A stretch of 64,000 bases of DNA. Origin: Flavobacteriales bacterium (lineage in GTDB: Bacteria > Bacteroidota > Bacteroidia > UBA10329). The stretch lies in contig JAIOYO010000008.1 of the NCBI GenBank assembly GCA_021741075.1, positions 12,283 through 76,282 on the forward strand, read 5' to 3'. Each line of letters starts with the position of its first letter. Within the stretch, counting starts at the first letter, position 1. The position numbers and the translations under genes are program-made. Under the pieces are notes generated by a model. That model was not told where the DNA came from. It searched no databases and saw only the letters and a program-made list of their open reading frames with translations. Positions 2,525 to 19,601 of the stretch are shown here, in pieces.

Positions 2525-4642
2525 TTAATCTACCGACTGATGCAGGAACTCGTTACCATCGCTCAATCCGCCACGTCTGTTGCCGTTCTCATCGGTTTGG
2601 TCTGTGTCGCGCACATCAAAACGTGTAACAGAACTTTCAGATGAATGAGGTGTGTCGTTCAGGTTTACGTTGCGTCTTTTAAAAGCAGGAACGTTTTCCA
2701 ATTCGGCCAAGTTGCTTGGCGAGCGGAAACGCTGGTTCATGTTTCTTAGACGCTCCATTCTTTCTGCCTGCTTACGTTGCATTTCCTCGGTATCTATTCC
2801 GTTATCAAAACGGTTTTCGATTGGCTCTGTACGGGTAATGAGTTTTGGCTGTTCGGAAAGTCCGTTTCCGAATGTCTTTTCGGCAGCAACAGGCTCATCA
2901 TCATACAAACCGAAAGTTTTGGTTTCGTCCTTGGCATTTGGAAGGTCGGCTTTTAATTCGAATTCAAATTCGGTAGCTGTTTCTGTGGTGATGATGTCGT
3001 CATCTACATTATCGTCCTCTTCAACCAATGCAAACAGATCTTTGGTAATCTCCGAAGCAGGTCGTCCTTTAAATAAGGTGAAGGGTGGTACTTCGGTTTC
3101 ATCTTCAACTTCCTCGGTATTTTCCATTACGGGAAGTTCGTTCACTTCTGTTTCTGAATTTAGTTCGAGGTCAGTTTTGGCAAGAATGGCAAGGTTAGCG
3201 TCTAACTCACCAGTCATTTCAAATTCGCTGCCATCATCATCATCTTCGTCTTCATCGTTGTAAAGCGGAAATTCTTCGCCATCCTTTATGCCAATCATTT
3301 CGGGAGCTTCTGCATCGAGCAACGCGTTTAGTTCGGCATCAGTTTCATCCACCTTAAACGCCATGATAGAAGCCTTCACTTCTTCGATGCTATCGTCTAA
3401 AAGAGAATGTTTGATGACTGGAGTTTCGGCAATTGGCTCCATCTTCATGTTAGTTGAAGGCGTGGTCAATTCATCCGTTGTATTCAAGGTTGTGTTCGGA
3501 GTAGAATTGAAAAGAACTGGCCGCTGCGTAAGCCCAGCAGGTATGGAGGATCTCTGCTCAGGTGCTTGCGTTGGCGCAGTAGTTTGGGCCTTAGGAGTTT
3601 CTACTCTTGTTGGACGATTGTACAAATCGTGCTTAATAACGTTCTCCTTTCCAGTTACTTTCTCTAGTTTCTCCCCAGAAAAACCAGTTGCAATAACGGT
3701 AAGCGTAAGCTTATCGCCAAGCTCTTCATCGGTGCCGTTACCCCAAATAACATCGGCATCCATACCTGCTTCTTCCTGAATGTAATCGGTTATTTCAGCA
3801 ACCTCATCCATTGTGACTTCTTCCAATCCAGAGCTAATGTACAGGAGGATGTTGCTAGCTCCGTAAATGTTATTGTCGTTGAGAAGAGGAGAGGCCAACG
3901 CCTGCTCTACAGCTTTAATGGCACGGTCTGGGCCAGAAGTAGTTGCTGATCCCATGATGGCCACGCCTGAGCTTGTCATAACGGTACGAACGTCTTCAAA
4001 ATCCACGTTCACGTAACCCTCCACCGTGATGATTTCGGCAATGCCTTTGGCGGCAATGGTTAACACATCATCGGCCTGTCCGAAAGCTTCGCTAAGTTTC
4101 AGATTTCCGTACATCTCGCGCAGCTTGTCGTTTGAGATTATGAGCACGGTATCTACGTGTTTCTTTAATTCTTCCAAACCGTAATCGGCTTGCATCTTTC
4201 GCTTTTTTCCTTCAAATCCGAACGGAATTGTGACGATACCCACGGTCAGGATTCCCTGCTCGCGTGCCGCTTCCGCAATAACGGGGGCAGCACCTGTTCC
4301 TGTTCCACCACCCATACCTGCAGTAATGAAAACCATTTTGGTATCTGGACCAAGGATTTCCTTGATGTCGTCTAAGTTTTCGATAGCCGCATTACGGCCC
4401 ACTTCGGCCTGTGCTCCTGCACCGCGACCTTCTGTTAGGCTAGAGCCCAACGCAATCTTCTTCGGCACAGGACTCATGTCCAACGCTTGCTGGTCCGTAT
4501 TACAGACTACGAAGTCTACACCTCGAATGCCTTGTTTGTACATGTGGTTTACAGCATTTGAGCCGCCACCACCTACTCCGATCACTTTGATGATCGAGGT
4601 TTCCTCTTTGGGGAGATTGAAATTCATCATTTCCTTAGCCAT
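2525..4642 (-). CDS. ftsZ: Cell division protein FtsZ with long acidic linker
   Basis: GVGGGGSNAV, tubulin signature GMGGGTGTG, VNVDFEDV, and C-terminal peptide VPAFKRR. Confidence 0.99.
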   Translation of the reverse strand: MAKEMMNFNLPKEETSIIKVIGVGGGGSNAVNHMYKQGIRGVDFVVCNTDQQALDMSPVPKKIALGSSLTEGRGAGAQAEVGRNAAIENLDDIKEILGPDTKMVFITAGMGGGTGTGAAPVIAEAAREQGILTVGIVTIPFGFEGKKRKMQADYGLEELKKHVDTVLIISNDKLREMYGNLKLSEAFGQADDVLTIAAKGIAEIITVEGYVNVDFEDVRTVMTSSGVAIMGSATTSGPDRAIKAVEQALASPLLNDNNIYGASNILLYISSGLEEVTMDEVAEITDYIQEEAGMDADVIWGNGTDEELGDKLTLTVIATGFSGEKLEKVTGKENVIKHDLYNRPTRVETPKAQTTAPTQAPEQRSSIPAGLTQRPVLFNSTPNTTLNTTDELTTPSTNMKMEPIAETPVIKHSLLDDSIEEVKASIMAFKVDETDAELNALLDAEAPEMIGIKDGEEFPLYNDEDEDDDDGSEFEMTGELDANLAILAKTDLELNSETEVNELPVMENTEEVEDETEVPPFTLFKGRPASEITKDLFALVEEDDNVDDDIITTETATEFEFELKADLPNAKDETKTFGLYDDEPVAAEKTFGNGLSEQPKLITRTEPIENRFDNGIDTEEMQRKQAERMERLRNMNQRFRSPSNLAELENVPAFKRRNVNLNDTPHSSESSVTRFDVRDTDQTDENGNRRGGLSDGNEFLHQSVD

Positions 4643-4747: not shown

Positions 4748-6139
4748 TTAATCAATTCCTTCGTTCATCCACTTCTCTAGCTTGCTCTTGAAGTTTGCTA
4801 GGCCGCCAAAAACGCTGCTTCCGCTTTTTTCTTCTGCCACTTCGCGCGCCACTTCTTCTGCTTCGGTGATAGTATTCTTTGGTTCTTCCACTTCTACTGC
4901 CTTCGGAACTTCTTTTTTAACGATGGGTGTGCCTTCTCGGCCTTCCGCCCAATCATCAACGGTCAGTCCGCGCGCAGCTAGTTCATCTCTAAATTCTAGT
5001 CCTTTCATTACCAACCCAACACCAGTTGAGAAGATGGGGCTGGTAACTTCCTCAGAATTGCCACTGGCAAGATGTTCGTTCGGGAAACCGACACGCACAT
5101 CCATTCCCGTTACGTATTCCATCAGTTGCGGAAGGTGTTTCAGCATGGCGCCACCACCCGTCACCACGATTCCGCCAATGAGTTTTTTCTCGTAGCCAGA
5201 ATTCTTAATCTCGTAATACACGTGCTCAATAATTTCTTCCATTCGAGCTTGAATGATGCTCGCTAGATTCTTCAGGCTGATTTCTCTCGGCTCACGTCCT
5301 CTCAAACCAGGAATAGAAACGATTTCGTTGTCTTTTGCCTCAGTTGCCAATGCCGAACCGAACTTCACTTTCAGCAATTCCGCTTGATGCTTGATAATGG
5401 TGCAGCCTTCTTTGATGTCTTCCGAAATGATGTTTCCACCAAATGGAATTACAGCCGTATGGCGAATGATATTGTCTTGGAAGATGGCAATGTCGGTTGT
5501 TCCACCACCGATATCAACCAGCACAACTCCAGCTTCCATTTCTTCATCATTAAGAACGGCAGCCGAAGAGGCCAATGGCTCCAGAATCAATTCTGTCACC
5601 TGCAAGCCAGCTTTGTGGGCGCAACGGTGGATGTTCTTTCCAGCGGCAACCTGTCCCGTGATGATGTGGAAATTGGCCTCTAAACGGATGCCGCTCATTC
5701 CCACAGGGTTCTTAATTCCCTGCTCGTTATCCACAATATACTCTTGCGGAAGCACGTGAATAATCTCCTCACCAGGAAGCATTTGGAGCTTGTACATATC
5801 GCGGATGAGATTGCGAACGTCCTCTTTGCTTATCTCCGTATCCAGCGAGTCGCGCGTGTAAATACCACGGTGCTGCAACGACTTGATGTGCTGACCCGCG
5901 ATACCGACATTCACATACTTGATCTCGATTCCCGTCTTATTCTCGGCCTCTTCCACGGCAGTTTTTATCGACTGAACCGTCATGTCGATGTTTGAAACAA
6001 CGCCACGGCTTACGCCCAACGATTCTGATTTACCGATACCAAGGATCTCAATCTTGCCATGCTCATCCCTGCGTCCAACGATGCAAGCAATCTTGGTTGT
6101 TCCGATGTCTAGTCCTACTACGATGTCTGAATTTTCCAT
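4748..6139 (-). CDS. ftsA: Cell division protein FtsA
   Basis: VGLDIGTTK, DIGGGTTD and VTGGGA actin-fold motifs; dcw position. Confidence 0.99.
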   Translation of the reverse strand: MENSDIVVGLDIGTTKIACIVGRRDEHGKIEILGIGKSESLGVSRGVVSNIDMTVQSIKTAVEEAENKTGIEIKYVNVGIAGQHIKSLQHRGIYTRDSLDTEISKEDVRNLIRDMYKLQMLPGEEIIHVLPQEYIVDNEQGIKNPVGMSGIRLEANFHIITGQVAAGKNIHRCAHKAGLQVTELILEPLASSAAVLNDEEMEAGVVLVDIGGGTTDIAIFQDNIIRHTAVIPFGGNIISEDIKEGCTIIKHQAELLKVKFGSALATEAKDNEIVSIPGLRGREPREISLKNLASIIQARMEEIIEHVYYEIKNSGYEKKLIGGIVVTGGGAMLKHLPQLMEYVTGMDVRVGFPNEHLASGNSEEVTSPIFSTGVGLVMKGLEFRDELAARGLTVDDWAEGREGTPIVKKEVPKAVEVEEPKNTITEAEEVAREVAEEKSGSSVFGGLANFKSKLEKWMNEGID

Positions 6140-6936
6140 TAGCTGTTCTTTTTGGTACAGATGACCTGGTCTTTGTATTTAAGGTTGATGTGAGAGTATT
6201 GGTCCCAGCCAGTTTTGTTAAGCCCTTTACGGTAGAAAAGGAGCAGTTTTTTGAATTTCTGTTCCATTTTGTCGATGTGTCCGAGCAGAATGTGGTGGTC
6301 GCCAACGGTCGGGATTAAGGTCAGTTCACCATTCGGTTCCACACGAATCTGCTGGATTTGTGCTTTCCAGAATTCATCGTTTCTGATGAACGTAGCGAGT
6401 TGGAACAGGTCGTCTAGTTTTGATCGCTGATTCATGCTATCCGTCATTTCCGCCACGTTGAAACGTAACATTTTAAACTGCTTGTCCATGATGAATCCGC
6501 TTGCAACTGGCACACGTGCTGTGTAGTTGTCGCTGGTCGGCATCACGTTTCCGTCTTTATCCAAATAATAGCTTTCGCCATACACGTTAAAAACGCGCAA
6601 AATTGGTTCGCGCTGATATACCTTCACTGCAAACACGCCATTGTGCTTGGTGTAAACCTCAGATCGTTTCACGGATGGATCGGCAGTAATCTGACGTTCG
6701 TAAACCGCAATTGGAATCGAAGTAATCGGCTTTCCAACCAAGCTATCTCCCTTGCTGAAAATGATGTCGAGCACATCATCGTTTGTCACGAAGAAGTTAC
6801 CTGCGTTGTTGTCCACCTCAATCTTGATGCTCTTGCATGGAATCTTATCCGATTCGCGTGCGCTGAACGCCAACGAAACGAACAATCCAGCTATGGCTAG
6901 AACCCAAACTGTTATATTTAGAATCTTACGAATCAT
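6139..6936 (-). CDS. ftsQ: Cell division protein FtsQ/DivIB
   Basis: N-terminal TM, POTRA-like region, C-terminal YSHINLKYKDQVIC; lies between murC and ftsA. Confidence 0.92.
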   Translation of the reverse strand: MIRKILNITVWVLAIAGLFVSLAFSARESDKIPCKSIKIEVDNNAGNFFVTNDDVLDIIFSKGDSLVGKPITSIPIAVYERQITADPSVKRSEVYTKHNGVFAVKVYQREPILRVFNVYGESYYLDKDGNVMPTSDNYTARVPVASGFIMDKQFKMLRFNVAEMTDSMNQRSKLDDLFQLATFIRNDEFWKAQIQQIRVEPNGELTLIPTVGDHHILLGHIDKMEQKFKKLLLFYRKGLNKTGWDQYSHINLKYKDQVICTKKNS

Positions 6937-8300: not shown

Positions 8301-9463
8301 GCCGCTTTCGCCAGTTTTAGGATTTCCTTCGCGATGTCTTCGTCCGCATTTGGTAGCGCCAACTTTTGGATATTCAATCGGAATTTGGCCTGTGTTGCTT
8401 CGTCAGAAAGCAGTTTCAGCGTTTCTTCGCAGGCTCTTGCGCCAGCTTCGTTGTCGGGTACGAGAATGGCTGCATCCACATCTACCAACGCTTGTGCATT
8501 TTTGGTCTGATGGTCTTCTGCTGCAAATGGGAACGGCACCAGAACCGAAGGCTTGCTCACGATACAGAGTTCCGAAATGGAGCTCGCGCCAGCTCGCGAA
8601 AGCACGACATCCGCAACCGCGTAAGCTTGATCCATTGTATAGATGAAATCGGAAACGAAGAAGTTCGTTGCATTGGCATCGGCAACGGCTTTCTTGGCTT
8701 CCTCAATGAAGAGTTTGCCCGTTTGCCAAACCACTTGCACGTCTGCCTGTTTGAAATCTTCGATATGGGATTTCACAGCCAGATTGATGGAGCGAGCGCC
8801 CAGACTTCCACCGATCACTAAAAGCGTTTTCTTACCTGGGTCAAGGTTGAATGTCTTTTGGCCCAACTCGCGTTTTCCTTCCAAATTCAAAATATCCTGA
8901 CGAACGGGATTTCCGGTTTGGATAATGTTTTTTGCTGGGAAGAATTTATCCATTCCATCATACGCCACACAGACTTTCTTGGCTCTTGCTCCCAGTAGTT
9001 TATTTGTAATTCCCGCATAAGAGTTCTGCTCTTGAATGACGGTGGGGATGGCTTTGATACTTGCTGCGTACATTACTGGTCCAGAAGCAAAACCGCCCAC
9101 GCCTACTACCACGTTCGGTTGGTACTCCTTGATAATCTTTAGCGACTTCAGTAGGCTTCCGACCAGTTTGAATGGGAATGCCAGGTTCTTAAGCATATTG
9201 CTGCGATTCAGTCCCGCAATATTGAGCCCGATGATTTGGTAACCAGCCGCAGGAACCTTCTCCATCTCCATCTTGCCCAATGCACCTACGAAAAGAATTT
9301 CTACATCCGATTGAAGTTTCTTCAGGGCATTCGCAATCGCAATGGCAGGGAAGATGTGTCCGCCCGTGCCGCCTCCAGAGATAATTACACGAACACCCTG
9401 AGCAGCCCTCCTGCCCCCCGAAGAGGGGTGAGGCGCAAATTGTATGTTTTTGCGATTATCCAT
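8297..9463 (-). CDS. murG: Undecaprenyl-PP-MurNAc-pentapeptide GlcNAc transferase
   Basis: GGGTGGHIFP, GGSLGA, SRAGA, DHQTKNA. Start reassigned to ATG 9463, which overlaps the ftsW stop (ATGGATAA). Confidence 0.97.
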   Translation of the reverse strand: MDNRKNIQFAPHPSSGGRRAAQGVRVIISGGGTGGHIFPAIAIANALKKLQSDVEILFVGALGKMEMEKVPAAGYQIIGLNIAGLNRSNMLKNLAFPFKLVGSLLKSLKIIKEYQPNVVVGVGGFASGPVMYAASIKAIPTVIQEQNSYAGITNKLLGARAKKVCVAYDGMDKFFPAKNIIQTGNPVRQDILNLEGKRELGQKTFNLDPGKKTLLVIGGSLGARSINLAVKSHIEDFKQADVQVVWQTGKLFIEEAKKAVADANATNFFVSDFIYTMDQAYAVADVVLSRAGASSISELCIVSKPSVLVPFPFAAEDHQTKNAQALVDVDAAILVPDNEAGARACEETLKLLSDEATQAKFRLNIQKLALPNADEDIAKEILKLAKAA

Positions 9464-9536
9464 TTGCGACTTGTAAATCCGACATGTCTGTTTCGGCCGC
9501 TTCCGAGGCACTTCCCCCTTTGGGGGATGAGGGGGC
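9405..9536. repeat. G/C-run palindromic (REP-like) element spanning the ftsW-murG junction
   Basis: Arms GCCCTCCTGCCCCCCGAAGAGGGG (9405-9428) and CCCCCTTTGGGGGATGAGGGGGC (9514-9536) are imperfectly complementary and each contains its own hairpin. Confidence 0.75.
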
Positions 9537-10688
9537 TTTTTCTTCATTCAACGAGCGACTCACGCTCAAAATCATTCCGATGGCAATGGATGTGAACCAA
9601 ATGGAGGTTCCGCCCATGCTCAAAAGAGGTAGTGGTTGACCAGTTACAGGAAACAAATTCACAGCAACAGCCATATTTATAAAAGCTTGAAAGATGAGGC
9701 TGAACGTGCAGCCAAATGCGAGCAACGTTCCGAATGTGCTGGTTCCTTTATGCACGATTCTAAGTCCACGGAATAACAGAATTAGGTATAGAAAGAGAAT
9801 TCCCATGCCGCCAACAAATCCCCATTCTTCGATGATAATCGCATAGATGAAATCCGCGTAGGCGCTCGGCAACCTGTTTCGCTGAACGCTGTTCCCGGGA
9901 CCAACACCAGTTATTCCACCTGTTGCAATGGCAATCTTGGCCTGCTCGGTTTGGTAGTTGGCATCGGCCGACTCTGGCGTTTCTTCATTGCTGATATAGG
10001 TTTCAACACGCTGCTTCCATGTTCCAAAGCGAGGAAGAACTTTCTCAATCGGTAAAGCGAAAGAGAGAAGGAAAACAAATGCACCAGCAAGGCCAATAGC
10101 ACCAATTAAGCCAGCGAGGTATTTGAATTTGACACGGCCAATGAATAAGACTACTAGCGATGTAGCGAAAAGCACCGCGGCTGTTGAGAAGTTCGCAGGT
10201 AGAATTAAGGCGCAGACAATGAGGACTGGCCAAATGATTTTCAGGAAACCTTCCTTGAAATCGTCCATGGAATCTTGCCTCTTGGCAAGTTGTCGAGCCA
10301 AGAAGGCAATGAGTGCTAACTTGGCCAAATCGGACGTTTGAAATGATATATTGATAACGGGCAGCGTCAGCCATCTCGATGCGGAGTTAACCGATGTTCC
10401 CGCGATTAGCGTTACAGCCAAAAGTGGAATAGAAACCCAAATAAAAATCTGAGCAACGCGAGAAAAATACGTGTACGGAACCTTGTGGATTCCGTAAATC
10501 ATTGCCCAACCCAGAACGATAATCATGAAGTGTTTGAACAAATAGTATTCAGTATTCCCGTGATGCTTGTAGTGCGCCAAATTGTTGGTCGCGCTATAGA
10601 CCGCCAGTATGGAAACAAGCGACAACAGAAACACAACGGCCCAAATGACCATGTCTCCCTGTAGATATTTCCTTACTAACGCGTTCAT
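9456..10688 (-). CDS. ftsW: SEDS peptidoglycan polymerase FtsW
   Basis: ASRWL, FQTSDLAK, YADFIYAII-EE, TGQPLPLLSMGGTS; about 10 TM segments. Confidence 0.97.
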   Translation of the reverse strand: MNALVRKYLQGDMVIWAVVFLLSLVSILAVYSATNNLAHYKHHGNTEYYLFKHFMIIVLGWAMIYGIHKVPYTYFSRVAQIFIWVSIPLLAVTLIAGTSVNSASRWLTLPVINISFQTSDLAKLALIAFLARQLAKRQDSMDDFKEGFLKIIWPVLIVCALILPANFSTAAVLFATSLVVLFIGRVKFKYLAGLIGAIGLAGAFVFLLSFALPIEKVLPRFGTWKQRVETYISNEETPESADANYQTEQAKIAIATGGITGVGPGNSVQRNRLPSAYADFIYAIIIEEWGFVGGMGILFLYLILLFRGLRIVHKGTSTFGTLLAFGCTFSLIFQAFINMAVAVNLFPVTGQPLPLLSMGGTSIWFTSIAIGMILSVSRSLNEEKAPSSPKGGSASEAAETDMSDLQVANG

Positions 10689-10691
10689 TTC

Positions 10692-10723
10692 AATTAATAA
10701 TTAAGAATGATGAATTAAAAATT
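10692..10723. repeat. AATTANN heptamer array (downstream arm of the four-helix-bundle cassette)
   Basis: aattaat-aattaag-aatgatg-aattaaa-aatt; inverted relative to 11104-11134. Confidence 0.75.
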
Positions 10724-10733
10724 TGGTGGTTCA

Positions 10734-11096
10734 TCAGTCCTTTTGAGTGTAGTTGGTTTTGGTTATTGCCGCTAATATTCGCAGGTTCTCGTCACAATCT
10801 TTAAGCATGGAATCAGCCTCCGATTCGTTCAAATAGTCAGTAGCTTTCATCAATCTCAACCAATACCTAGTTTCTCTCGCCTCTTTGTATGCTAAATTGA
10901 TTTTTGTCCCAAAGTCCTTTCTCGTTTGTCCTCCGATAGCTTCTTCCACATTTGCCCCTATGGATGTCCCACTTCTCAAAAATTGTTTTGATAGGACAAA
11001 CTCCTTCTTGTTTTCAGTAAGGTGACGGTACAACTTCACCACCCGAACTGCGAAATCGAAGCTCTTATCTTGGATAATGTTGCTGTCCTTACTCAT
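10734..11096 (-). CDS. Four-helix-bundle protein (23S rRNA intervening-sequence protein / Avd-like family)
   Basis: KSFDFAVRVVKL, LSKQFLRSGTSIGANVEEA and DF-x-KINLAYKEARETRYWL are hallmark motifs of this family. Confidence 0.93.
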   Translation of the reverse strand: MSKDSNIIQDKSFDFAVRVVKLYRHLTENKKEFVLSKQFLRSGTSIGANVEEAIGGQTRKDFGTKINLAYKEARETRYWLRLMKATDYLNESEADSMLKDCDENLRILAAITKTNYTQKD

Positions 11097-11103
11097 GGCG
11101 GCT

Positions 11104-11134
11104 ATTGTTAATTTTTAATTCCTAATTATTAATT
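11104..11134. repeat. AATTANN heptamer array (upstream arm of the four-helix-bundle cassette)
   Basis: Reverse complement reads aattaat-aattagg-aattaaa-aattaac-aat and supplies the final codons and TAG of the upstream gene. Confidence 0.75.
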
Positions 11135-11661
11135 AACCTTAAAACTGCTTTCGTGAATTGATTCCCTCGGTCTTCGTAGCTATCAAAAAGGTCATGCGAA
11201 GAGCATGCAGGAGAAAGAATAACCTTGTCACCTGGTTTAGCAAGAGCTACAGCAGCTTTCACTGCATCGTCAGCTGTGCTGGCCCCAACAATCACTTCTG
11301 CATCTGTTAAAAAAGTTTTGAAAACATTGCCATTTTCTCTTCCAAGACAGACCACAGCGCGAACCTTATCAGACACCAATTCCTTCAGCATACTGTAATC
11401 CTGACCTGCTTGCAGACCACCCACAATCCAAACGGCAGTTCCTTGCAAACGCTCCAACGAATACCACGTCAAATCCACGTTCGTAGCCTTAGAATCGTTA
11501 ATAAATTCGATGTCATTCCAAACGCCAATCACTTCCTGGCGGTGACGGGTGCTTTGCACATCCGAAACACTTTCTTCAAGGATCTGCTTCCTCAATTCAA
11601 GCAGACTGTTGAACATTTCCTGTTCCGTTTGCACTTCTTTATTCCAGTTCTTATTCTTCAT
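11122..11661 (-). CDS. Stand-alone MurD C-terminal (Mur ligase C) domain paralog, about 179 aa
   Basis: Gap-free manual alignment to the C-terminal ~157 aa of the adjacent MurD (about 83 identities): IEFINDSKATN, WIVGG, LSPAC, YEDRG. Likely ATG at 11661 (MKNKNW). Confidence 0.85.
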   Translation of the reverse strand: MKNKNWNKEVQTEQEMFNSLLELRKQILEESVSDVQSTRHRQEVIGVWNDIEFINDSKATNVDLTWYSLERLQGTAVWIVGGLQAGQDYSMLKELVSDKVRAVVCLGRENGNVFKTFLTDAEVIVGASTADDAVKAAVALAKPGDKVILSPACSSHDLFDSYEDRGNQFTKAVLRLINN

Positions 11662-11680
11662 AGGTTGATGATTCCTAGGT

Positions 11681-13012
11681 TTATAATGAGCGAACAGCAG
11701 CTTTAAATTGACGTCCTCGGTCTTCGTAATTTTCAAACAAATCGAAACTGGCGCAAGCCGGAGATAACAGAACGGTATCTCCTTTTTTGCCCAAATAGTA
11801 GCTCGCTTTTACCGCCTCAACTGCGCTTTGCGTATCTACAATCGTCTCCACAATTCCTTCAAATGCTGCGTGGATTTTCGCATTGTCGGTTCCCATACAG
11901 ATGATTGCCTTCACCTTGTCTTTCACCAACTCAGCAACCATCGAGTAGTCGTTGCCTTTGTCAACCCCACCCACAATCCAAATCACAGGTGTGTTCTGGC
12001 ATTCCAGCGCATACCATGTGGAGTTGATATTCGTAGCCTTGCTATCGTTAATGAATTCTATGCCTTGAACTTTTCCGACAGGTTCTAGTCGATGCTCAAC
12101 AGCGCTGAAATCGCTTAGACTTTCTCGGACTACGTCTTTGCGCAGCTCCAAGAGGCGACCCACAATTCCAGCAGCCATAGAGTTGTAGGAGTTGTGTTTG
12201 CCTTGTAATGCAAGATCGTGGATTGACATGGTTAGGTTTGAATTATTGAGGTTTATGTTGAGATTGTTCTGATCTGTGTAAGCACCTTCGGCAACCGTGC
12301 CGTTGAGCGTAAATGGAAGTCGTTTTGCCTTTATAGAATCGTTCAGTGCTTTAGCGATGTTTTCGTCATCAGCGCAGTAGATAAAAGCGTCTTCTGAGGT
12401 TTGATTTTGTGTAATTCGGAATTTGGAATTGATATAGTTTTCCATGTTTCCATAGCGATCCAAATGGTCTGGAGTAATGTTCATCAGCACCGCCACATTC
12501 ACACGACTTTCAAACATTCCGTCTAATTGATAACTGCTGAGTTCGAGCACCAGATAATCAAACTCCGAATCGGCCACTTGCCACGCCAAACTTTTGCCAA
12601 CGTTGCCTGCCAATCCCACATCCAAACCAGCTTTGGTAAGCATATGATGGGTTAGGAGGGTAGTCGTAGTTTTTCCGTTAGTTCCTGTAATGCCGATGAT
12701 TTTCGCATTGGTGTATCGCAAGCCAAATTCAATCTCAGAAATAACTTTCACGCCTTTCTTTAAAAGTGCTTGAATGAGAGGGGTTGAGTCAGGAATTCCT
12801 GGGCTTTTGATTACTAAATCAGCATTCAGAATTTTCTCTTCGGAATGCTTTCCTTCTTCAAATTCGATTTTCCAACTGCGCAATTTTTTAGCATAGGTAT
12901 CTTTCAGCTTTCCCTTATCCGAAAGGAAAACATCGTAGCCTTTTACCTTGCCGAGATAGGCTGCCCCAGCACCACTTTCTCCACCACCCAATATGACCAG
13001 TCTTTCTGCCAT
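11681..13012 (-). CDS. murD: UDP-MurNAc-L-Ala--D-glutamate ligase
   Basis: [47 protein letters not shown]. Confidence 0.99.
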   Translation of the reverse strand: MAERLVILGGGESGAGAAYLGKVKGYDVFLSDKGKLKDTYAKKLRSWKIEFEEGKHSEEKILNADLVIKSPGIPDSTPLIQALLKKGVKVISEIEFGLRYTNAKIIGITGTNGKTTTTLLTHHMLTKAGLDVGLAGNVGKSLAWQVADSEFDYLVLELSSYQLDGMFESRVNVAVLMNITPDHLDRYGNMENYINSKFRITQNQTSEDAFIYCADDENIAKALNDSIKAKRLPFTLNGTVAEGAYTDQNNLNINLNNSNLTMSIHDLALQGKHNSYNSMAAGIVGRLLELRKDVVRESLSDFSAVEHRLEPVGKVQGIEFINDSKATNINSTWYALECQNTPVIWIVGGVDKGNDYSMVAELVKDKVKAIICMGTDNAKIHAAFEGIVETIVDTQSAVEAVKASYYLGKKGDTVLLSPACASFDLFENYEDRGRQFKAAVRSL

Positions 13013-14262
13013 TATCTAAGTTTGAGGGTTACCACTGTGAGTACTGCAAGCATGATTCCCACAATCCAAAAGCGCCCAACGATTTTGGCCTCGTGCCAAC
13101 CCTTTTTCTGGAAATGGTGATGAAGAGGTGACATCAGGAAGATTCTTCTTCCTTCACCGAATTTCTTTTTCGTGTATTTGAAATAGCTTACCTGCATTAC
13201 CACAGAGAGGTTTTCCACTAGGAAAACGCCACACAGAATTGGAATCAAGAGTTCTTTTCTGATCGCCAGTGCGAAAACAGCAATTATTCCACCCAAAGCA
13301 AGGCTTCCTGTATCTCCCATGAAAACCTGAGCTGGATATTGATTGTACCAAAGAAATCCGATGCAAGCGCCAATAAATGCCGAGATGAAAACCACCAGTT
13401 CGCCCGATCCAGGGATGTACATGATATTCAGGTAATCGGCAAAAATGATGTTACCCGAAACGTAGGCGAATGCCGCTAACGTAACGCCAATGATTGCCGA
13501 AGTTCCTGTTGCTAATCCGTCCAGCCCGTCTGTGAGGTTTGCTCCGTTTGAAACTGCTGTCACAATGAAAATCACAATCGGAATAAAAACCAGCCAGCCC
13601 CAATCTTTCGCTTTATCTCCTAGGAAAAATAGTAGAGAGCTATAGTCGAATTCGTTGTCTTTTACGAAAGGAATGGTTGTAACGAGCGAATGTTCTGCTT
13701 CACCATAAACAGGAAGCGTTTCACCTTTTACCAGCTTGCCATCAATGGTTGTTTCAATGCTTTCACCGCCACTTACAAGTCTGTCTTTAACGGCTACGCT
13801 ATCATTAAAATAAAGCGTGCAGGCCACAATAAGGCTGATTCCTACTTGCCCCATAATCTTGAACCTTCCAGCAAGACCTTCTTTGTCTTTCTTGAAAACC
13901 TTGATGTAATCATCAATAAAGCCGATGGTTCCCAACCAAACGGTGGAGACAATCATCAGGATTACATAAACGTTATTCAGCTGCGCGAAAAGAATGGTCG
14001 GAATGAGGATGGAGGAGAGGATGATGATTCCGCCCATAGTTGGCGTTCCCTTCTTCTGAGTTTGCTCTGCAAGGCCTAAATCACGAACGATTTCACCCAC
14101 TTGCTTTAACTGCAAAAACTCAATTACTTTCTTGCCAATAACCATTGAGCAAATGAGGGAAGTGATAACGCTTGCAGCTGCACGAAATGAGATGTACTGG
14201 AACAATCCTGCCCCAGGCAAATCATAATGTGTTTGAAGAAATTCGAACAGATGGTAAAGCAT
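13012..14262 (-). CDS. mraY: Phospho-MurNAc-pentapeptide transferase
   Basis: [39 protein letters not shown]. Confidence 0.99.
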
Positions 14263-15722
14263 TAGTTGGTCTGTTTGAGGTTCGTGGTTAGGATTTCCAT
14301 GTCGTCAAAAGGCGTTTTTACCCCTTTGATTTCTTGGTATTTCTCGTGTCCTTTTCCAGCCACAAGAATGATGTCGCCAGATTGGGCCAACATGCAGGCA
14401 GTTCGGATGGCTTCCGCTCGGTCAAGAATGGTTACCGCTTTTCTCACTGTTACTGGGTCAAGACCTTTTTTCATGTCTTCGATGATTTGCTGTGGGTCTT
14501 CGCTTCTTGGATTGTCTGAAGTGAGAATCACTTTGTCGCTTCCTTCTGCCGCAATGCGTGCCATTTCTGGCCGTTTGGTCTTGTCGCGATCACCACCGCA
14601 CCCCACAAGTGTTACCAGTTTTTCATTCCCCGTTCTAAATTCGCGAATTGTAGAAATTACATTGTCCAATGCGTCTGGCGTATGGGCGTAATCAACAATA
14701 CCTAGAATGTTGTTCGAGGTTTTGAAAAATTGGAAACGACCTTCTGGCGAATGAAGATTGCTTACCGTGGTGAGAATCTGAAGCTTTTCCTCTTTCAGCT
14801 CCAGCGCGGCTCCGTACACGCTTAATATGTTGTAAGCATTGAATGAGCCGATTAACCGGGTAATTACTTCCTGTCCGTCAATGTTCAGAATCAAACCTGT
14901 CAGATTGTTCTCAAGGATTTTTGCCTTGCGGTCAGCCATCGACTTTAAACCGTAGGTTACAATCTTAGCATTGGTATTCTGCACCATTATTCCACCATGT
15001 CTGTCATCCGCATTAATAAGGGCGAACGCTTTGGATGAAAGCCCATCAAACAACATCTTCTTAGCTAAGATGTAATTGGTGAATGTTTCGTGATAATCGA
15101 GGTGGTCGTGTGTAATGTTTGTGAAAATGGCTCCTGTGAAACTCAATCCAGCCACACGATGCTGATGCAAAGCATGCGAACTCACTTCCATAAAACAGAA
15201 TTCGCAACCTGCTTCAACCATTTCGGCCAATAGCTTATTTAAATTGATTGGGTCTGGTGTGGTGTGGGTAGCGGCAACTACAGTTCCGTTTATTAAATTT
15301 CTAACTGTTGAAATAAGGCCAACCTTGTAGCCCAGTGCTATGAAAAGTTCGTAAAGCAAGGTGGCTGTGGTCGTCTTTCCATTGGTTCCGGTTACCCCAA
15401 CCAGTTTCATGTCCTGTGATGGGTTGTCGAAAAAATTGGATGCAATAATGCCAGCAGCATAGTGGCTATTCTTCACTTGAACGTAGTTCACATCTTTCTC
15501 AAGATTTTCTGGAAGAGTTTCGCATACAATTGCCAGTGCGCCCTGCTTAATGGCCAGTGCTATGTAATTGTGTCCGTCTGCCTGAGTTCCCTTTAGAGCA
15601 ATGAAAAGCGAGAATTTTTTCGCTTGACGAGAATCAGTGCAGATGTTCTCAATAGCGACATTGGTAGATCCAATTACTTCTTCCAGACCAGCTTTGTATA
15701 ATATGTCCTTCAGTAATTTCAT
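14262..15722 (-). CDS. murE: UDP-MurNAc-dipeptide--meso-DAP ligase
   Basis: [21 protein letters not shown], the DNPR motif associated with meso-DAP specificity, AGKGHE. Confidence 0.99.
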
Positions 15723-17818
15723 GATAAGCGAAGTATTATTTCGTTACCACGCATGGTGCGTGTGCCCGGGCGGATTGACTGCTGGCGAACAACCCCAGAA
15801 CCTACCATACTTACTTTTAGTCCTGAGTTTTCCAATAGGAAGAGCGCGTCCATTGCTCCCATTCCTATTACTCTAGGAACGAGGTTGTCAATTACTGGAC
15901 GTTCAATAATGTCAACCGAATTGGAGTCTACCGAAGCCAGTGCCCATTTTGCGTCAGGAGCTTTGATATCTGTTTTTATATCGAGTATCTCAAACGCTTT
16001 AACGAGGTCTTCTTTCTCGGTTACTTTCGAGAATGGGATGATGGAGTTTGCCAGCAGTGGATCTGTTCCAACTTCTTCCAACATCTTCACCTGTGTGGAA
16101 TAAACTTTATCTGAAATTTCTTTGAAAATCGGTCCAGCAACTACGTTTCCATAATATGCAGAGCTAGTCGGTGAATCAATCACTACAATGCACGTATAGC
16201 GCGGTTTGTCGGCTGGGAAATAGCCAACGAACGATGCCTGATAGGTTTTGTCTCGTTGATAGCTGCCACCTTTCGAGATTAAGGCTGTACCCGTCTTTCC
16301 AGCAATTTTGTAGTTAGCGTGTTTAAGGTTGCTGGCGGTTCCATGTTCAACCACGCCTTCCATTACTGTTTTAAGTTTGTCGATTGTTTTCTGTGAACAA
16401 ATACGTTCCTTGAGAACCACTGTCGGAAACTCTTTAACCGTTGTTCCGTGCTTGGTAATGGTGCTTACAAATTTTGGTCGAACCATTTTTCCATCGTTTG
16501 CAATGGCATTATAGAATGCGAGAATTTGCAATGGTGTTTGGAGAACACCGTAGCCTATACTCATCCACGGAAGCGAAATCCCTGACCAACTTTCGTCCTT
16601 TGGCGATGGAATCGAAGGCTCACCTTCTCCCGGAATTTCCAATCCTAAGGGGGCATTTAATCCCATTGCCACCAAGCGGTCAATTAGCTTCTCAGGGTTC
16701 TTTTGGTAGCATTGGTTTATCAGTTTTGATATTCCAACATTGGAAGAGATTTCGAAAACTTTGGCAACGGTAATTTTGTCGTAAACCCCTGTTTTCGAAT
16801 CTTTCATGAAGTCATTGTGGAATTTCTTGATACCACCTTCAATGTCTACGGTATCGGTTATGTCCACAAATCCATCTTCTAAAAGACATAAAAGACTTGC
16901 CAATTTGAATGTTGATCCCGGTTCTGTAGATGAGCCAATGGCGTAGTTATAGGTTTCTGCATACGTCCCATCGCCTTGAGAAGTAAGATTTGCAATGGCC
17001 TTGATGTTGCCTGTTTGCACTTCCATCAAAATAGCACAGCCGTGATGCGCACCGTGCTTTTGCAATTGGGTAAGCAAAGCGTTTTGCGCCACATCTTGAA
17101 TATTAATGTCTATGGTGGTAACGAGGTCGGAACCATCTTCTGGCTCAATTTCGTTCTCATCGCTTAAAGGTTTCCAGTTGCCACCGGCAATTTTTCTCAT
17201 CAATCGTTTTCCACCAACACCTGCCAATTCAGTAGAGTAAGCGCCTTCTAATCCAACGCTAAATCCGGGCTGATCATAGCCGATTGTTCTGGCTGCTAGT
17301 TGTTTAAACGGTTTCGAACGCTTGTTGTGCTGATTGTAGATGAGTCCTCCGCTGTATTTTCCAAGATTGAAGATTTCGAATTCGCGAAGCGCCTTCAACT
17401 CTTTGTGTCCAACTTTCCTTTTAATAAGGTAATACTGACTCTTGTTGAGTCTAGCTTTGGTTAGTTCACGTTTATAAGCTTCAGCCGATTTATCGCCAAA
17501 GAGTGCGGCAAGCTGTCGCGATAATTTCCCAATGTGTTCGTTAAAATAGTCATCCTTCAATGTCGGAACGGCTGCGTCCCAACGGATTTCATATATCGGT
17601 TCGGAAGTGGCCAAAAGACTACCGTCATTGGCGAAGATATTTCCGCGCGCTGCTTCTATTTCTCGAAAAGCGGTTGTCTGAGTTTCAGCTTTTTCTTTCC
17701 ACTTTTCGCCTTCAACAAATTGAATATGAGCCACGCGCGCAACAATTGCAACCGCGAATAAACACATCAGTCCATAAGAGACATAGACACGGGTTTTTAT
17801 TTCCTTTTCGTGGCTCAA
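15719..17818 (-). CDS. ftsI: Penicillin-binding protein FtsI (with PASTA domain)
   Basis: EPGSTFK (SxxK), SSN (SxN), KTG, and a C-terminal PASTA domain. Confidence 0.97.
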   Translation of the reverse strand: MSHEKEIKTRVYVSYGLMCLFAVAIVARVAHIQFVEGEKWKEKAETQTTAFREIEAARGNIFANDGSLLATSEPIYEIRWDAAVPTLKDDYFNEHIGKLSRQLAALFGDKSAEAYKRELTKARLNKSQYYLIKRKVGHKELKALREFEIFNLGKYSGGLIYNQHNKRSKPFKQLAARTIGYDQPGFSVGLEGAYSTELAGVGGKRLMRKIAGGNWKPLSDENEIEPEDGSDLVTTIDINIQDVAQNALLTQLQKHGAHHGCAILMEVQTGNIKAIANLTSQGDGTYAETYNYAIGSSTEPGSTFKLASLLCLLEDGFVDITDTVDIEGGIKKFHNDFMKDSKTGVYDKITVAKVFEISSNVGISKLINQCYQKNPEKLIDRLVAMGLNAPLGLEIPGEGEPSIPSPKDESWSGISLPWMSIGYGVLQTPLQILAFYNAIANDGKMVRPKFVSTITKHGTTVKEFPTVVLKERICSQKTIDKLKTVMEGVVEHGTASNLKHANYKIAGKTGTALISKGGSYQRDKTYQASFVGYFPADKPRYTCIVVIDSPTSSAYYGNVVAGPIFKEISDKVYSTQVKMLEEVGTDPLLANSIIPFSKVTEKEDLVKAFEILDIKTDIKAPDAKWALASVDSNSVDIIERPVIDNLVPRVIGMGAMDALFLLENSGLKVSMVGSGVVRQQSIRPGTRTMRGNEIILRLS

Positions 17819-18183
17819 TTCTCAGGGTGTTCTTTTGATTTGACCACGATTTTCTTTGGCGGCACCACACTTTCGTAAATTCCCATTGGAGCCACAGCTT
17901 TTGCTACTTCGCTTTGCTTGCTCACAAACATCAATTCTGACCGTGTAGAGATGAATTCTGATTTCAATTCCTTGATCTCGCGGTTCATTTTTTCCATTCC
18001 GATAATGGTTCCTTCACCAAAGTGGCTGTTGGCGATGTAGAAGATGCCAATGCCAAACATGAAAAGTAGAAATGGAATATTGTTCAGCATGTTATCTCGC
18101 GTGAGGAAACTTCCGTCAAGCACGCCAAGAACGCGCTTCGCTACGCCTCTTTCTTCTGTGGTATTTTCCGCTTCCTGACTCAT
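17815..18183 (-). CDS. ftsL: FtsL-like cell division protein
   Basis: Single TM, YIANSH, coiled coil, PPKKI; lies between rsmH and ftsI. Confidence 0.88.
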   Translation of the reverse strand: MSQEAENTTEERGVAKRVLGVLDGSFLTRDNMLNNIPFLLFMFGIGIFYIANSHFGEGTIIGMEKMNREIKELKSEFISTRSELMFVSKQSEVAKAVAPMGIYESVVPPKKIVVKSKEHPEN

Positions 18184-19079
18184 TACTTTCTTTCTGCAAC
18201 TCTCAGTTTTGCGCTTCTGGCGCGAGGATTCCTTTCTATTTCTTCATCCGTTGGGATGATTGGTTTCCTTGAAATGGCAGTGAATGGAACAAGAGGTTTT
18301 CCGAAGAAATCCTTCTCCATTTTCCCATCGATATTTCCGCTTTTCACAAGATTTTTTACCAGTCTGTCTTCTAATGAATGGTAGGAAATGACCACTAAGC
18401 GTCCACCTTCTGAAAGGAGGTTCGGCATTTGAGCGAGCATTTCCTCTAATGCATTCATCTCATCATTCACTTCTATTCTTATTGCTTGAAAAACTCGCGA
18501 CATGAAGCTGTTTTCCTTACCTCGCTGCGCGATGGGAAGTATTACCACTTTGAATTGTTCGATGGTTTCAATCGGTTCAATTCCGCGGGCAGCTACAATT
18601 GTTTTTGAGAGTTTCCATGCTTCGTTCAGATCGGCATTTTCTCGAAAAATTCGGGAGAGGTTTTCTACAGAATATTCGTTGATAATCGTTCTTGCAGTAA
18701 GTTCAATTCCATCAGACATTCGCATGTCCAACGGGCCATCTGCGCGTGTGCTAAAGCCTCTGCTTGGCTCATCAATTTGAAAAGAGGATATGCCTAGATC
18801 TGCCAGCACGCCATCAACTGGAATGGCTTTGAAATACCGCAAAAAGTTGCGCACATACCTGAAGTTGTGTGGTATAAATGTGAAGCGTTCGTCCTGTAAC
18901 AGGTTCATTTGTGCGTCTTGGTCTTGATCGAAAGCGTACAGATGTCCGCTTTTTAAATGCTTTAAAATTTCGCGCGAATGACCTCCTCCTCCGAAGGTCA
19001 AGTCCACGTAAATTCCAGCAGGATCAATCCTTAAGCCGTCAATGCACTCCTGTAACAGAACCGGATTATGGTAGGTCAT
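18183..19079 (-). CDS. rsmH: 16S rRNA m4C1402 methyltransferase
   Basis: YHNPVLL, TFGGGGHS, DLGISS, SYHSLEDR, NPRARSAKLR. Confidence 0.99.
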   Translation of the reverse strand: MTYHNPVLLQECIDGLRIDPAGIYVDLTFGGGGHSREILKHLKSGHLYAFDQDQDAQMNLLQDERFTFIPHNFRYVRNFLRYFKAIPVDGVLADLGISSFQIDEPSRGFSTRADGPLDMRMSDGIELTARTIINEYSVENLSRIFRENADLNEAWKLSKTIVAARGIEPIETIEQFKVVILPIAQRGKENSFMSRVFQAIRIEVNDEMNALEEMLAQMPNLLSEGGRLVVISYHSLEDRLVKNLVKSGNIDGKMEKDFFGKPLVPFTAISRKPIIPTDEEIERNPRARSAKLRVAERK

Positions 19080-19539
19080 CAGCCCCATCATTTAGGCTGC
19101 CCATGACTTCTTCAGCCAGTGTGGCAATGTCTGTTTCAGGATTGCTCAACTTCTCCTCGTAAGCGTCCTTGTCCCATATTTCCACATAGGTACCAGCACT
19201 TGCGAGAACGATGCTGTTGGTGATTGAACTGAATCCTACAAGGTCTTTCGGAATCAGCAATCGGCCCGTTGCATCAAGCTCAACGATCCTCACCCCAGCA
19301 GTAAACAACCGGATGAACTCAACATTCTTGCGCACAAACCTATTCAGTCTGTTCACCTTACTCATCTTGTCATCCCACTCGCTCATTGGGTACAATTCAA
19401 TGCACTTCTCAAACATGCCGCGCTTCAAAACGAAGCCGCTTTCGAGCTGAGACATCAATTGTTTCTTCAATGCTGTAGGCAGCATGAGTCGACCCTTGGT
19501 GTCCACTTTGCATTCATATGTCCCGATAATGTTGGTCAC
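19066..19539 (-). CDS. mraZ: Transcriptional regulator MraZ
   Basis: Two DxKGR/DxxGR AbrB-like repeats and EIWD; probable GTG start at 19539. Confidence 0.97.
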   Translation of the reverse strand: MTNIIGTYECKVDTKGRLMLPTALKKQLMSQLESGFVLKRGMFEKCIELYPMSEWDDKMSKVNRLNRFVRKNVEFIRLFTAGVRIVELDATGRLLIPKDLVGFSSITNSIVLASAGTYVEIWDKDAYEEKLSNPETDIATLAEEVMGSLNDGADDLP

Positions 19540-19575
19540 TACACTGGAATTTATCAGGTAAAGTAAGGGAATATC

Positions 19576-19601
19576 TCCCACTCTCTACCACAGTTTACCA
19601 C
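19576..19601 (-). promoter_or_regulatory. Putative MraZ operator (three GTGG boxes at 10-bp period)
   Basis: Minus strand GTGGTA-aact-GTGGTA-gaga-GTGGGA directly upstream of mraZ, matching the known 10-bp-spaced GTGG dcw-box pattern. Confidence 0.75.

Follow-up and report, generated by a model that had tools for sequence, protein, structure and literature searches.

A Free MurD C-Terminal Domain Encoded Between murD and ftsW in the dcw Cluster of Bacteroidia

The dcw cluster is among the most studied of bacterial gene clusters, and its gene list is treated as closed. The gene described here lies inside this cluster in a Flavobacteriales bacterium (assembly GCA_021741075.1, contig JAIOYO010000008.1) and encodes a stand-alone MurD C-terminal domain; the window referred to below is the whole stretch of 64,000 nucleotides that was analyzed. 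The closest described relative is MurD itself, with which the small protein shares its fold and the HR.E, NDS, SPAC.S, and Y.DRG motifs, being 53% identical to residues 287-443 of the host enzyme. Unlike MurD, it is without the N-terminal and central ATP-binding domains, has a start of its own, has a relaxed loop at the position of E. coli K348, and varies at the positions of K319 and T321. We take K348 of E. coli MurD to be the residue that binds the alpha-carboxylate of D-Glu. In MD runs of MurD with sulfonamide inhibitors carrying glutamate mimetics, one carboxyl group contacts Lys348 and Thr321 and the other Ser415 and Phe422, as reported in passages of PMC3527612.

Other described systems resemble the locus in part. 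MurD-FtsW chimeras, as presented in passages of Shirakawa et al. (2023; PMC10214165), likewise place a MurD C-domain just before FtsW at the same point of the dcw cluster, but there the whole of MurD is fused, in Proteobacteria and Actinobacteria, whereas here an extra C-domain is free, in Bacteroidia. The same passages describe Mur-ligase C-domains as contact surfaces (PMC10214165). At the dcw loci examined and among the best 150 matches in a representative library, the free domain was never fused to FtsW. The MurT subunit of the lipid II amidotransferase MurT/GatD is also of the Mur-ligase type and works with a partner protein (PMC6085368). MurT chains 6h5e_D and 7q8e_A are among the Foldseek matches of the small protein. 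GatD docks on the C-terminal domain of MurT. However, MurT keeps its central domain and is catalytic, unlike the small protein, and no GatD-like gene adjoins the small gene.

The plastid-encoded RNA polymerase contains a MurE-like subunit, presumably a non-enzymatic Mur-ligase homolog that has been retained in a structural role. This subunit (PDB 8r6s chain Q) ranks 43rd among the Foldseek matches of the small protein, but it is a full-length, three-domain plant protein in an unrelated complex, whereas the small protein is a single domain. Finally, MigC of Acinetobacter shows that MurD can be bound and inhibited by another, separately encoded protein, although MigC has an unrelated fold (a COG0523 GTPase), binds domain 2 of MurD, and is encoded outside the dcw cluster (passages of PMC12208494). 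No description of a free MurD C-domain gene was found in full-text searches of the literature, supplements (such as those behind the Mur-chimera figures of PMC10214165) aside, and the relevant passages of PMC8871954, PMC10214165, PMC12283558, PMC12208494, and PMC3527612 name no such gene. A preliminary description of this DNA had held that the gene is not a canonical dcw member, and it is indeed absent from the dcw gene lists given in passages of PMC8871954 and PMC10214165. The superfamily and the fold are known; the architecture is undescribed.

The dcw genes of the window are collected in Table 1. Downstream of ftsW follow, in order, murG, murC, a 265-aa ORF, ftsA, and ftsZ. Two proteins of the cluster carry additional segments: FtsI has a C-terminal PASTA domain (33 bits, residues 647-699), and FtsZ, at 705 aa, has about 380 residues beyond its FtsZ_C domain.

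Table 1. The small gene and its dcw neighbors, in window positions
Feature	Position	Strand	Remarks
mraZ	19066-19581	-	Pfam; dcw cluster
rsmH	18183-19091	-	Pfam; dcw cluster
FtsL-like gene	17815-18183	-	dcw cluster
ftsI	15719-17818	-	Pfam; dcw cluster
murE	14262-15722	-	Pfam; dcw cluster
mraY	13012-14262	-	Pfam; dcw cluster
murD	11681..13012	-	443 aa; complete three-domain UDP-MurNAc-L-Ala:D-Glu ligase; parent of the duplicated domain
spacer, murD stop to small-gene ATG	11662..11680	-	19 nt; murD and small gene in different frames
small gene (stand-alone MurD C-terminal domain)	11122..11661	-	intact ORF; ATG start; 179 aa plus stop
four-helix-bundle gene	10734-11096	-	120 aa; PF05635 23S_rRNA_IVP / TIGR02436; between small gene and ftsW
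ftsW	9456-10688	-	PF01098; follows the small gene throughout the class
265-aa ORF at ftsQ position	6139-6936	-	no Pfam match at E<=1e-5
ftsZ	2525-4642	-	705 aa; dcw cluster

The preliminary description had read the small gene as an intact ORF of about 179 aa directly after murD, aligning with it without gaps at about 83 of 157 positions, and these readings hold. BLASTP against the neighboring MurD returns exactly 83 identities over 157 positions (53%), with 107 positives, no gaps, and an E value of 6e-57. Residues 20-176 of the ORF pair with MurD residues 287-443, that is, with the inter-domain helix and the whole C-terminal domain. An alternative frame with a TTG start (11122..11736, 204 aa) would overlap the end of murD. 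However, the methionine at 11661 is taken as the conserved start because M1 is at least 90% conserved in an alignment of 44 sequences (A1) and because the upstream open frames in relatives vary from 176 to 232 aa. Read-through or a frameshift that fuses the small protein to MurD was rejected: the two frames differ, and fusion by either route is unlikely because the spacing elsewhere ranges from about 1 to 167 nt without a constant frame.

The only Pfam domain in the small protein is Mur_ligase_C (PF02875), which scores 40.4 bits against a cut-off of 28.4 over residues 40-153 and covers profile positions 1-127 fully. An N-terminal domain and a P-loop domain are absent by the same Pfam search, as had been claimed from the letters alone (no nucleotide-sugar domain and no P-loop). 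The host MurD, by comparison, carries MurD_N (PF21377/PF21799), Mur_ligase_M (PF08245), and Mur_ligase_C (PF02875), and, at 408.5 bits, passes the TIGR01087 cut-off of 211.95. On that profile, the small protein scores 136.9 bits, below the cut-off, and matches only positions 287-439 of 441. Classification as a MurD enzyme by the TIGR01087 equivalog was therefore rejected on its score and on the missing MurD_N domain, P-loop Mur_ligase_M domain, and K348 equivalent. Cyanophycin synthetase was also rejected as an identity, since that enzyme requires ATP-grasp and Mur-ligase M and C domains in about 850-900 aa, whereas the small protein has 179 aa and PF02875 only.

The layout of the small protein comprises a polar N-terminal tail of its own (residues 1-19), a linker helix (about 13-33), and a Rossmann-like domain 3 (40-179). 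In the AF2 model (pLDDT 84.4, pTM 0.76), residues 1-9 form a disordered tail, 13-33 a helix of lower confidence, and the region from residue 40 a confident alpha/beta domain. The best 33 PDB matches of this model in a Foldseek search are all MurD, with 7u35_C superposing at an rmsd of 1.6 A over 141 columns (TMq 0.72). The small protein is thus predicted to have the Rossmann-like alpha/beta fold of Mur-ligase domain 3. The median pI is about 5.1 for both the small-protein core and the MurD C-domain. The N-terminal tails are polar and variable, and inspection of the first 22 residues by eye shows nothing that resembles a signal peptide or a membrane segment.

The gene is widespread among relatives of the host. 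Of 21 same-genus genomes, 19 carry it intact after murD, and the two that gave no match at all are 70% and 63% complete; it also follows murD in both other genera of the family. All 17 genomes counted in the GTDB order carry it (completeness of at least 85%, except for G000, counted at 72.7%). Across these genus, family, and order genomes, identity to the window protein declines from 97% to 57%, and no stops are found. The preliminary description had suggested a search of Bacteroidota genomes for such a gene. Among 300 other genomes of the class Bacteroidia that are at least 90% complete, 77 have a second MurD C-domain match, and these are spread over 20 of 76 families (G112 and G187, each with a single match, are unpublished records and bear on this count only). 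For all 20 families, one or more genomes were fetched, and the second match always proved to be a short ORF of 156-227 aa. Among genomes from other classes of the phylum, only 1 of 188 has two MurD C-domain matches. The gene belongs to an old, class-wide family rather than being a local oddity. It is dispensable in many lineages, because about three quarters of the class genomes (223 of 300) lack a second match.

A scan of contigs returned mostly MurD matches, with a second C-domain at 19 of 80 loci, all 19 in MAGs. Among the isolates noted, a second C-domain was not found in Wandonia haliotis, Crocinitomix algicola, Pedobacter sp., or Polaribacter aestuariivivens (tblastn, E 1e-8). Carrier families f21, f27, f37, f40, f41, and f46 include genomes assembled into very few contigs (that of G143 is closed), and some of these may be isolates. 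The databases hold hundreds of homologs of 170-190 aa, which are named "hypothetical protein," "UDP-N-acetylmuramoylalanine--D-glutamate ligase (partial)," or "cyanophycin synthetase." Some NCBI members of 182-201 aa bear the last of these names (P0153 and P0154; for example, a Vicingaceae MAG protein), and many JGI entries are called "UDP-N-acetylmuramoylalanine--D-glutamate ligase." Both the cyanophycin synthetase and the MurD-ligase names are domain-level misnamings. Many 182-aa matches that start like MurD residue 262 and keep GGVDKG were excluded from the family because they come from short contigs on which the MurD gene call is truncated.

In families f4, f46, and f50, there is also a third copy, which is remote and far more diverged. 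These Mur_ligase_C-only ORFs (L025 1968-2507 in G026, G143:C1:2841628-2842128, G072:C59:33233-33706, and G148:C3:308637-309089) lie outside the dcw cluster, are 24-34% identical, and have no HR motif. The copy in G026 encodes 179 aa and has MerR-B12, LEA_2, and aldehyde dehydrogenase genes as neighbors.

The age of the duplication was approached with a rooted tree of 68 rows (29 small proteins, the 29 MurD C-domains of their host genomes, and, as outgroup, 10 MurD C-domains from other classes), built with IQ-TREE under LG+C20 and leaving out 16 near-duplicate genomes of family f1 as well as the remote third paralog of G026. The outgroup MurDs are set apart with support of 100/99, the MurD C-domains of the class form a single clade (91/82), and the small proteins form another (83/80), which is recovered in 83% of bootstrap trees and agrees with quick trees. 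The paralog comparison that had been proposed from the sequence therefore yields separate clades for the small proteins and the MurD C-domains of the class. A recent duplication specific to f1 was rejected, given that a topology in which the f1 small proteins are constrained to group with the f1 MurDs costs 41.5 units of lnL (p-AU 0.013). The groupings of small proteins roughly follow those of MurD (f1+f4+f50+f46; f27+f18). Because all copies fall outside the MurD clade in the trees, the duplication is an old one in the class stem, and the simplest reading of the tree would be a single partial tandem duplication there, followed by vertical descent and many losses. A single origin is likely rather than proven, because the small-protein branches are long.

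Codon comparisons within family f1 point in the same direction as the survey of frames. The median dN/dS (NG86) of the small gene is 0.072 (34 unsaturated of 231 pairs), compared with 0.044 for the murD C-domain (46 of 210 pairs usable) and 0.094 for the murD N+M domains (82 of 210 pairs usable). Synonymous sites are saturated in most f1 pairs, which implies long survival of the small-gene frame. Furthermore, none of the 46 short C-domain ORFs from 45 genomes (156-227 aa by longest-ORF calls) is interrupted by a stop. The small gene is therefore kept by purifying selection inside the dcw operon. The protein nevertheless changes roughly three times as fast as the domain from which it derives (mean distance 1.07 vs 0.37), so what is constrained is less a fixed site than the fold and a few motifs.

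These results bear on the proposal that the gene is a decaying or neutral partial duplicate, in other words a pseudogene remnant. An origin by partial tandem duplication, evolution faster than that of murD, and the failure to find a second match in 223 of 300 class genomes would all suit such a remnant, but the duplication is as deep as the class, the frames are uninterrupted, dN/dS is 0.07 with dS mostly saturated, and the start methionine, length, and C-terminal motif are conserved. The preliminary description had favored selection over decay and had named absence from relatives, a dN/dS near 1, and frameshifts as signs of the latter; the presence of the gene in nearly all same-genus genomes (19 of 21) and across 20 class families, the ratio of 0.072, and the 0 of 46 interrupted frames bear out its view. 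Decay is excluded.

The residue changes relative to MurD give some indication of what has been lost. As had been read from the letters, HR, DSKATN, SPAC.S, and YEDRG are present in the small protein, and the GGVDKG of MurD has become GGLQAG. In an alignment to E. coli MurD (2wjp_A), H40/R41 correspond to H301/R302, D56/S57 to D317/S318, S155 to S415, H156 to L416, and Y162 to F422, and the alanine of GGLQAG (Ala85) falls on K348, the lysine that the preliminary description had pointed out as lost. When 33 proteins of the f1/f4/f46/f50 clade were compared with 44 MurD C-domains, the loss was seen to extend across that clade: none of the clade sequences compared has lysine in the K348 column, which is K in 44 of 44 MurDs. 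In the MurD-invariant D-K-G-N loop (E. coli 347-350), no residue exceeds 55% among the 33 clade proteins, and within one genus the K348 site is variously A, P, E, D, S, N, Q, or V. The K319 site (K/G/R/H) and the T321 site (T/I/V) are variable even within the family, and the sites of Y405 and K437 of the window MurD are relaxed in the clade. Other sites have been fixed anew, with N330, S331, and A335 of the window MurD replaced by D, L, and S, respectively, and some 50% of the clade small proteins have H at the F423 site (E. coli L416).

Outside this clade, the K348 site keeps K or has R, and the variation lies elsewhere in the protein. The small proteins of f27, f18, f40, f77, and f42 retain every MurD motif, the K348 lysine included. 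Across the 44 sequences of alignment A1, E43, N55, P151, R165, and G166 are invariant, and H40, D56, S57, S155, F159, and Y162 are at least 90% conserved. The family-wide residues H40, E43, N55, D56, S57, P151, S155, Y162, R165, and G166 may be purely structural. Among the MurDs of carrier genomes, all 26 that were compared retain all motifs and a complete C-domain. Because the D-Glu loop is relaxed while the host MurDs stay complete, the small protein is, in this lineage, a soluble-looking, non-catalytic paralog, or pseudoenzyme domain. With neither a UDP-sugar domain nor a P-loop domain, the small protein alone cannot ligate.

It is conceivable that the free domain still takes part in catalysis by replacing the resident C-domain on the N+M part of MurD or of another Mur ligase, thereby altering the amino acid that is added, much as the in-trans specificity module suggested from the sequence. 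Consistent with this idea, the ATP side and part of the amino-acid pocket are invariant in the f1/f4/f46/f50 clade (H40, R41 = R302, N55, D56 = D317, S57, S155 = S415, and R165), and the five families just named have kept all MurD motifs along with the K348 lysine. Yet each of the 26 carrier MurDs has an attached canonical C-domain that would out-compete a free one, and no orphan ligase devoid of a C-domain, that is, no N+M-only Mur ligase, was seen in five genomes (G000, G004, G005, G008, and G016). Mur_ligase_M matches number 7-8 per genome in the four of these that are 98-100% complete and 4 in G000, and all lie in frames of at least 430 aa. Moreover, members of a single genus carry different residues at the K348 site, and none has become fixed there, a pattern that resembles relaxation rather than a new specificity; R302, K319, and T321 are not retained in the wider family. 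The complete host C-domains, the absence of a C-domain-less ligase in five genomes, and the loop that has not been re-fixed weaken the suggestion enough that we consider it improbable.

A free domain might instead serve as a small-molecule sensor or buffer that binds a D-Glu-like acid, a UDP-MurNAc-peptide, or a nucleotide, and then signals its presence or sequesters it. Domain 3 of the Mur ligases is the amino-acid-binding domain, and with the pocket defined as in passages of PMC3527612, the S415/F422 (Y162) half is conserved family-wide, whereas the K348/T321 half is lost. However, the pocket residues vary between and within families, unlike what one defined ligand would demand; in MurD, the other two domains complete the binding sites; and neither an output domain nor a fused partner appears among the best 150 representative-library matches. 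The variability of the K348 site in particular argues against the amino-acid sensor of the preliminary description, at least one for a single defined amino acid. A role in sensing or buffering therefore seems rather unlikely.

Gene order offers a different kind of evidence. The order mraY-murD-small gene-ftsW is found in 19 of 20 families examined, and ftsW is the next dcw gene at the 34 loci with enough fetched DNA. The small-gene stop lies at most 25 nt from the ftsW start, or overlaps it, at about 26 of the 34 (an approximate figure from longest-ORF calls), and in G009 the distance is 3 nt. The four-helix-bundle gene of the window is a sporadic insertion outside the conserved unit: of 22 loci of family f1, only 3 have it between the small gene and ftsW (G000, G020, and G006; the window included). 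The insert measures about 430 nt and is flanked by AT-rich ATTAGGAATTA-like stretches, at the same junction that spans 3 nt in G009. In G004 (L022 1914-4995), a DUF1444-like ORF and a YhcG/DUF1016 PDDEXK nuclease gene separate murD from the small gene, an IS200-like Y1 transposase gene separates the small gene from ftsW, and the small gene is still intact. Because inserts separate it from ftsW in G000, G020, G006, and G004, tight coupling to ftsW is not obligatory.

The one exception to the standard order comes from f46, represented by three genomes of a single genus (one genome is closed), in which the dcw cluster is split. One piece ends with murD, together with mraY; the small gene heads the other, 3 nt before ftsW-murG, and sits behind unrelated genes for an Hpt-domain protein, ferritin, and a succinate dehydrogenase flavoprotein. 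This split hints at a linkage of the small gene to ftsW, and it is a hint rather than a test because one genus with three genomes represents one independent event. In a Cryomorphaceae MAG (L129, 1986-3032), murD and ftsW are separated by two tandem stand-alone MurD C-domain genes (172 and 174 aa), of which the second overlaps the ftsW start by 4 nt; this arrangement may hint that the proteins pair.

Two further loci are recorded for completeness. In G018 (L014 661-3904), murD is in three ORFs (97, 124, and 255 aa) and ftsW in three pieces, and the small gene is intact at 182 aa; the breaks in murD and ftsW are likely assembly indel errors in this genome, which is 86% complete. In G177 (L043 2617-5205), mraY and murD, separate genes in the sister genome G026, share a single open frame of 862 aa, which represents either a MraY-MurD fusion or a sequencing error.

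Scans of positions 10500-11900 revealed no sigma-70 promoter-like site, by a method that does not cover Bacteroidota promoters, and three weak terminator sites, two inside ORFs and one across the start of the four-helix-bundle gene. Co-transcription with murD, as suggested by the 19-nt spacing and the lack of a promoter-like site, would suit an inhibitory decoy, whereby the free domain covers the domain-2 face of MurD in its open state and throttles flux. The small protein is, after all, paralogous to the very part of MurD whose surface closes over domain 2, and MigC in Acinetobacter binds and inhibits MurD through this same domain (passages of PMC12208494). Nevertheless, intramolecular competition favors the resident C-domain, and in a mirror-tree comparison of 29 genomes the small-protein distances do not convincingly follow MurD N+M (partial r of 0.34, given FtsW) over FtsW (0.24, given MurD N+M). 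A decoy is consequently an unlikely explanation.

Other searches for a partner were also made. Complex prediction for FtsW and the small protein, from alignments of 29 rows each (A2 and A3, respectively), gave a score of 0.00 against a mark of 0.32, which speaks neither for nor against a complex. Comparison of the FtsW proteins of 32 carriers with those of 46 non-carriers disclosed no clean discriminating column (best score 0.59), one family dominating the carriers. No Rosetta-stone fusion of the free domain was present in the best 150 of 23,530 representative-library matches (profile A4, E<=1e-3). The long proteins P0185, P0244, and P0212 were rejected as fusions, since they keep GG.DKG and are thus MurD 3' ends joined to unrelated sequence. 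Overall, no partner or ligand of the small protein was singled out by the analyses run here.

The explanation that we favor is that the small gene is an ancient, maintained dcw gene of Bacteroidia whose product, a free and non-catalytic MurD domain 3, probably serves as an accessory, adaptor, or regulatory protein that works by binding. The gene, its fold, its age, its selection, its relaxed substrate loop, and its synteny are the observed part of this explanation. Domain 3 of MurD would be produced in the cytoplasm as a protein of its own, from a transcript shared with murD and ftsW. It would then bind a partner and, in one of these three capacities, serve wall synthesis or division at the murD-to-ftsW stage. 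An adaptor or regulator is ranked first because it fits the gene's fixed position, the one split of the cluster, and the MurD-FtsW chimeras described in print (passages of PMC10214165); a decoy of MurD is ranked next, then a metabolite sensor or buffer, and then an in-trans catalytic module. A more specific version is that a Bacteroidia-specific accessory protein physically joins the cytoplasmic precursor line (MurD or other Mur ligases) to the steps at the membrane (FtsW, MraY, and MurG), or gates FtsW by precursor supply. This version is put forward only tentatively, but if true, a separate protein would do what MurD-FtsW fusions do in other phyla.

A small gene of this kind is easily dismissed as a gene fragment. 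Here, it amounts to an extra conserved dcw gene at a fixed place in about a quarter of the sampled Bacteroidia genomes (20 of 76 families), and short genes that encode only Mur_ligase_C after murD should not be called pseudogenes in annotation. Should the product prove to be a true regulator or adaptor of MurD or FtsW, it would provide a handle on the coupling of cytoplasmic precursor synthesis to the divisome, as well as a clear example from bacteria of an enzyme domain that has become a free subunit without catalytic activity.
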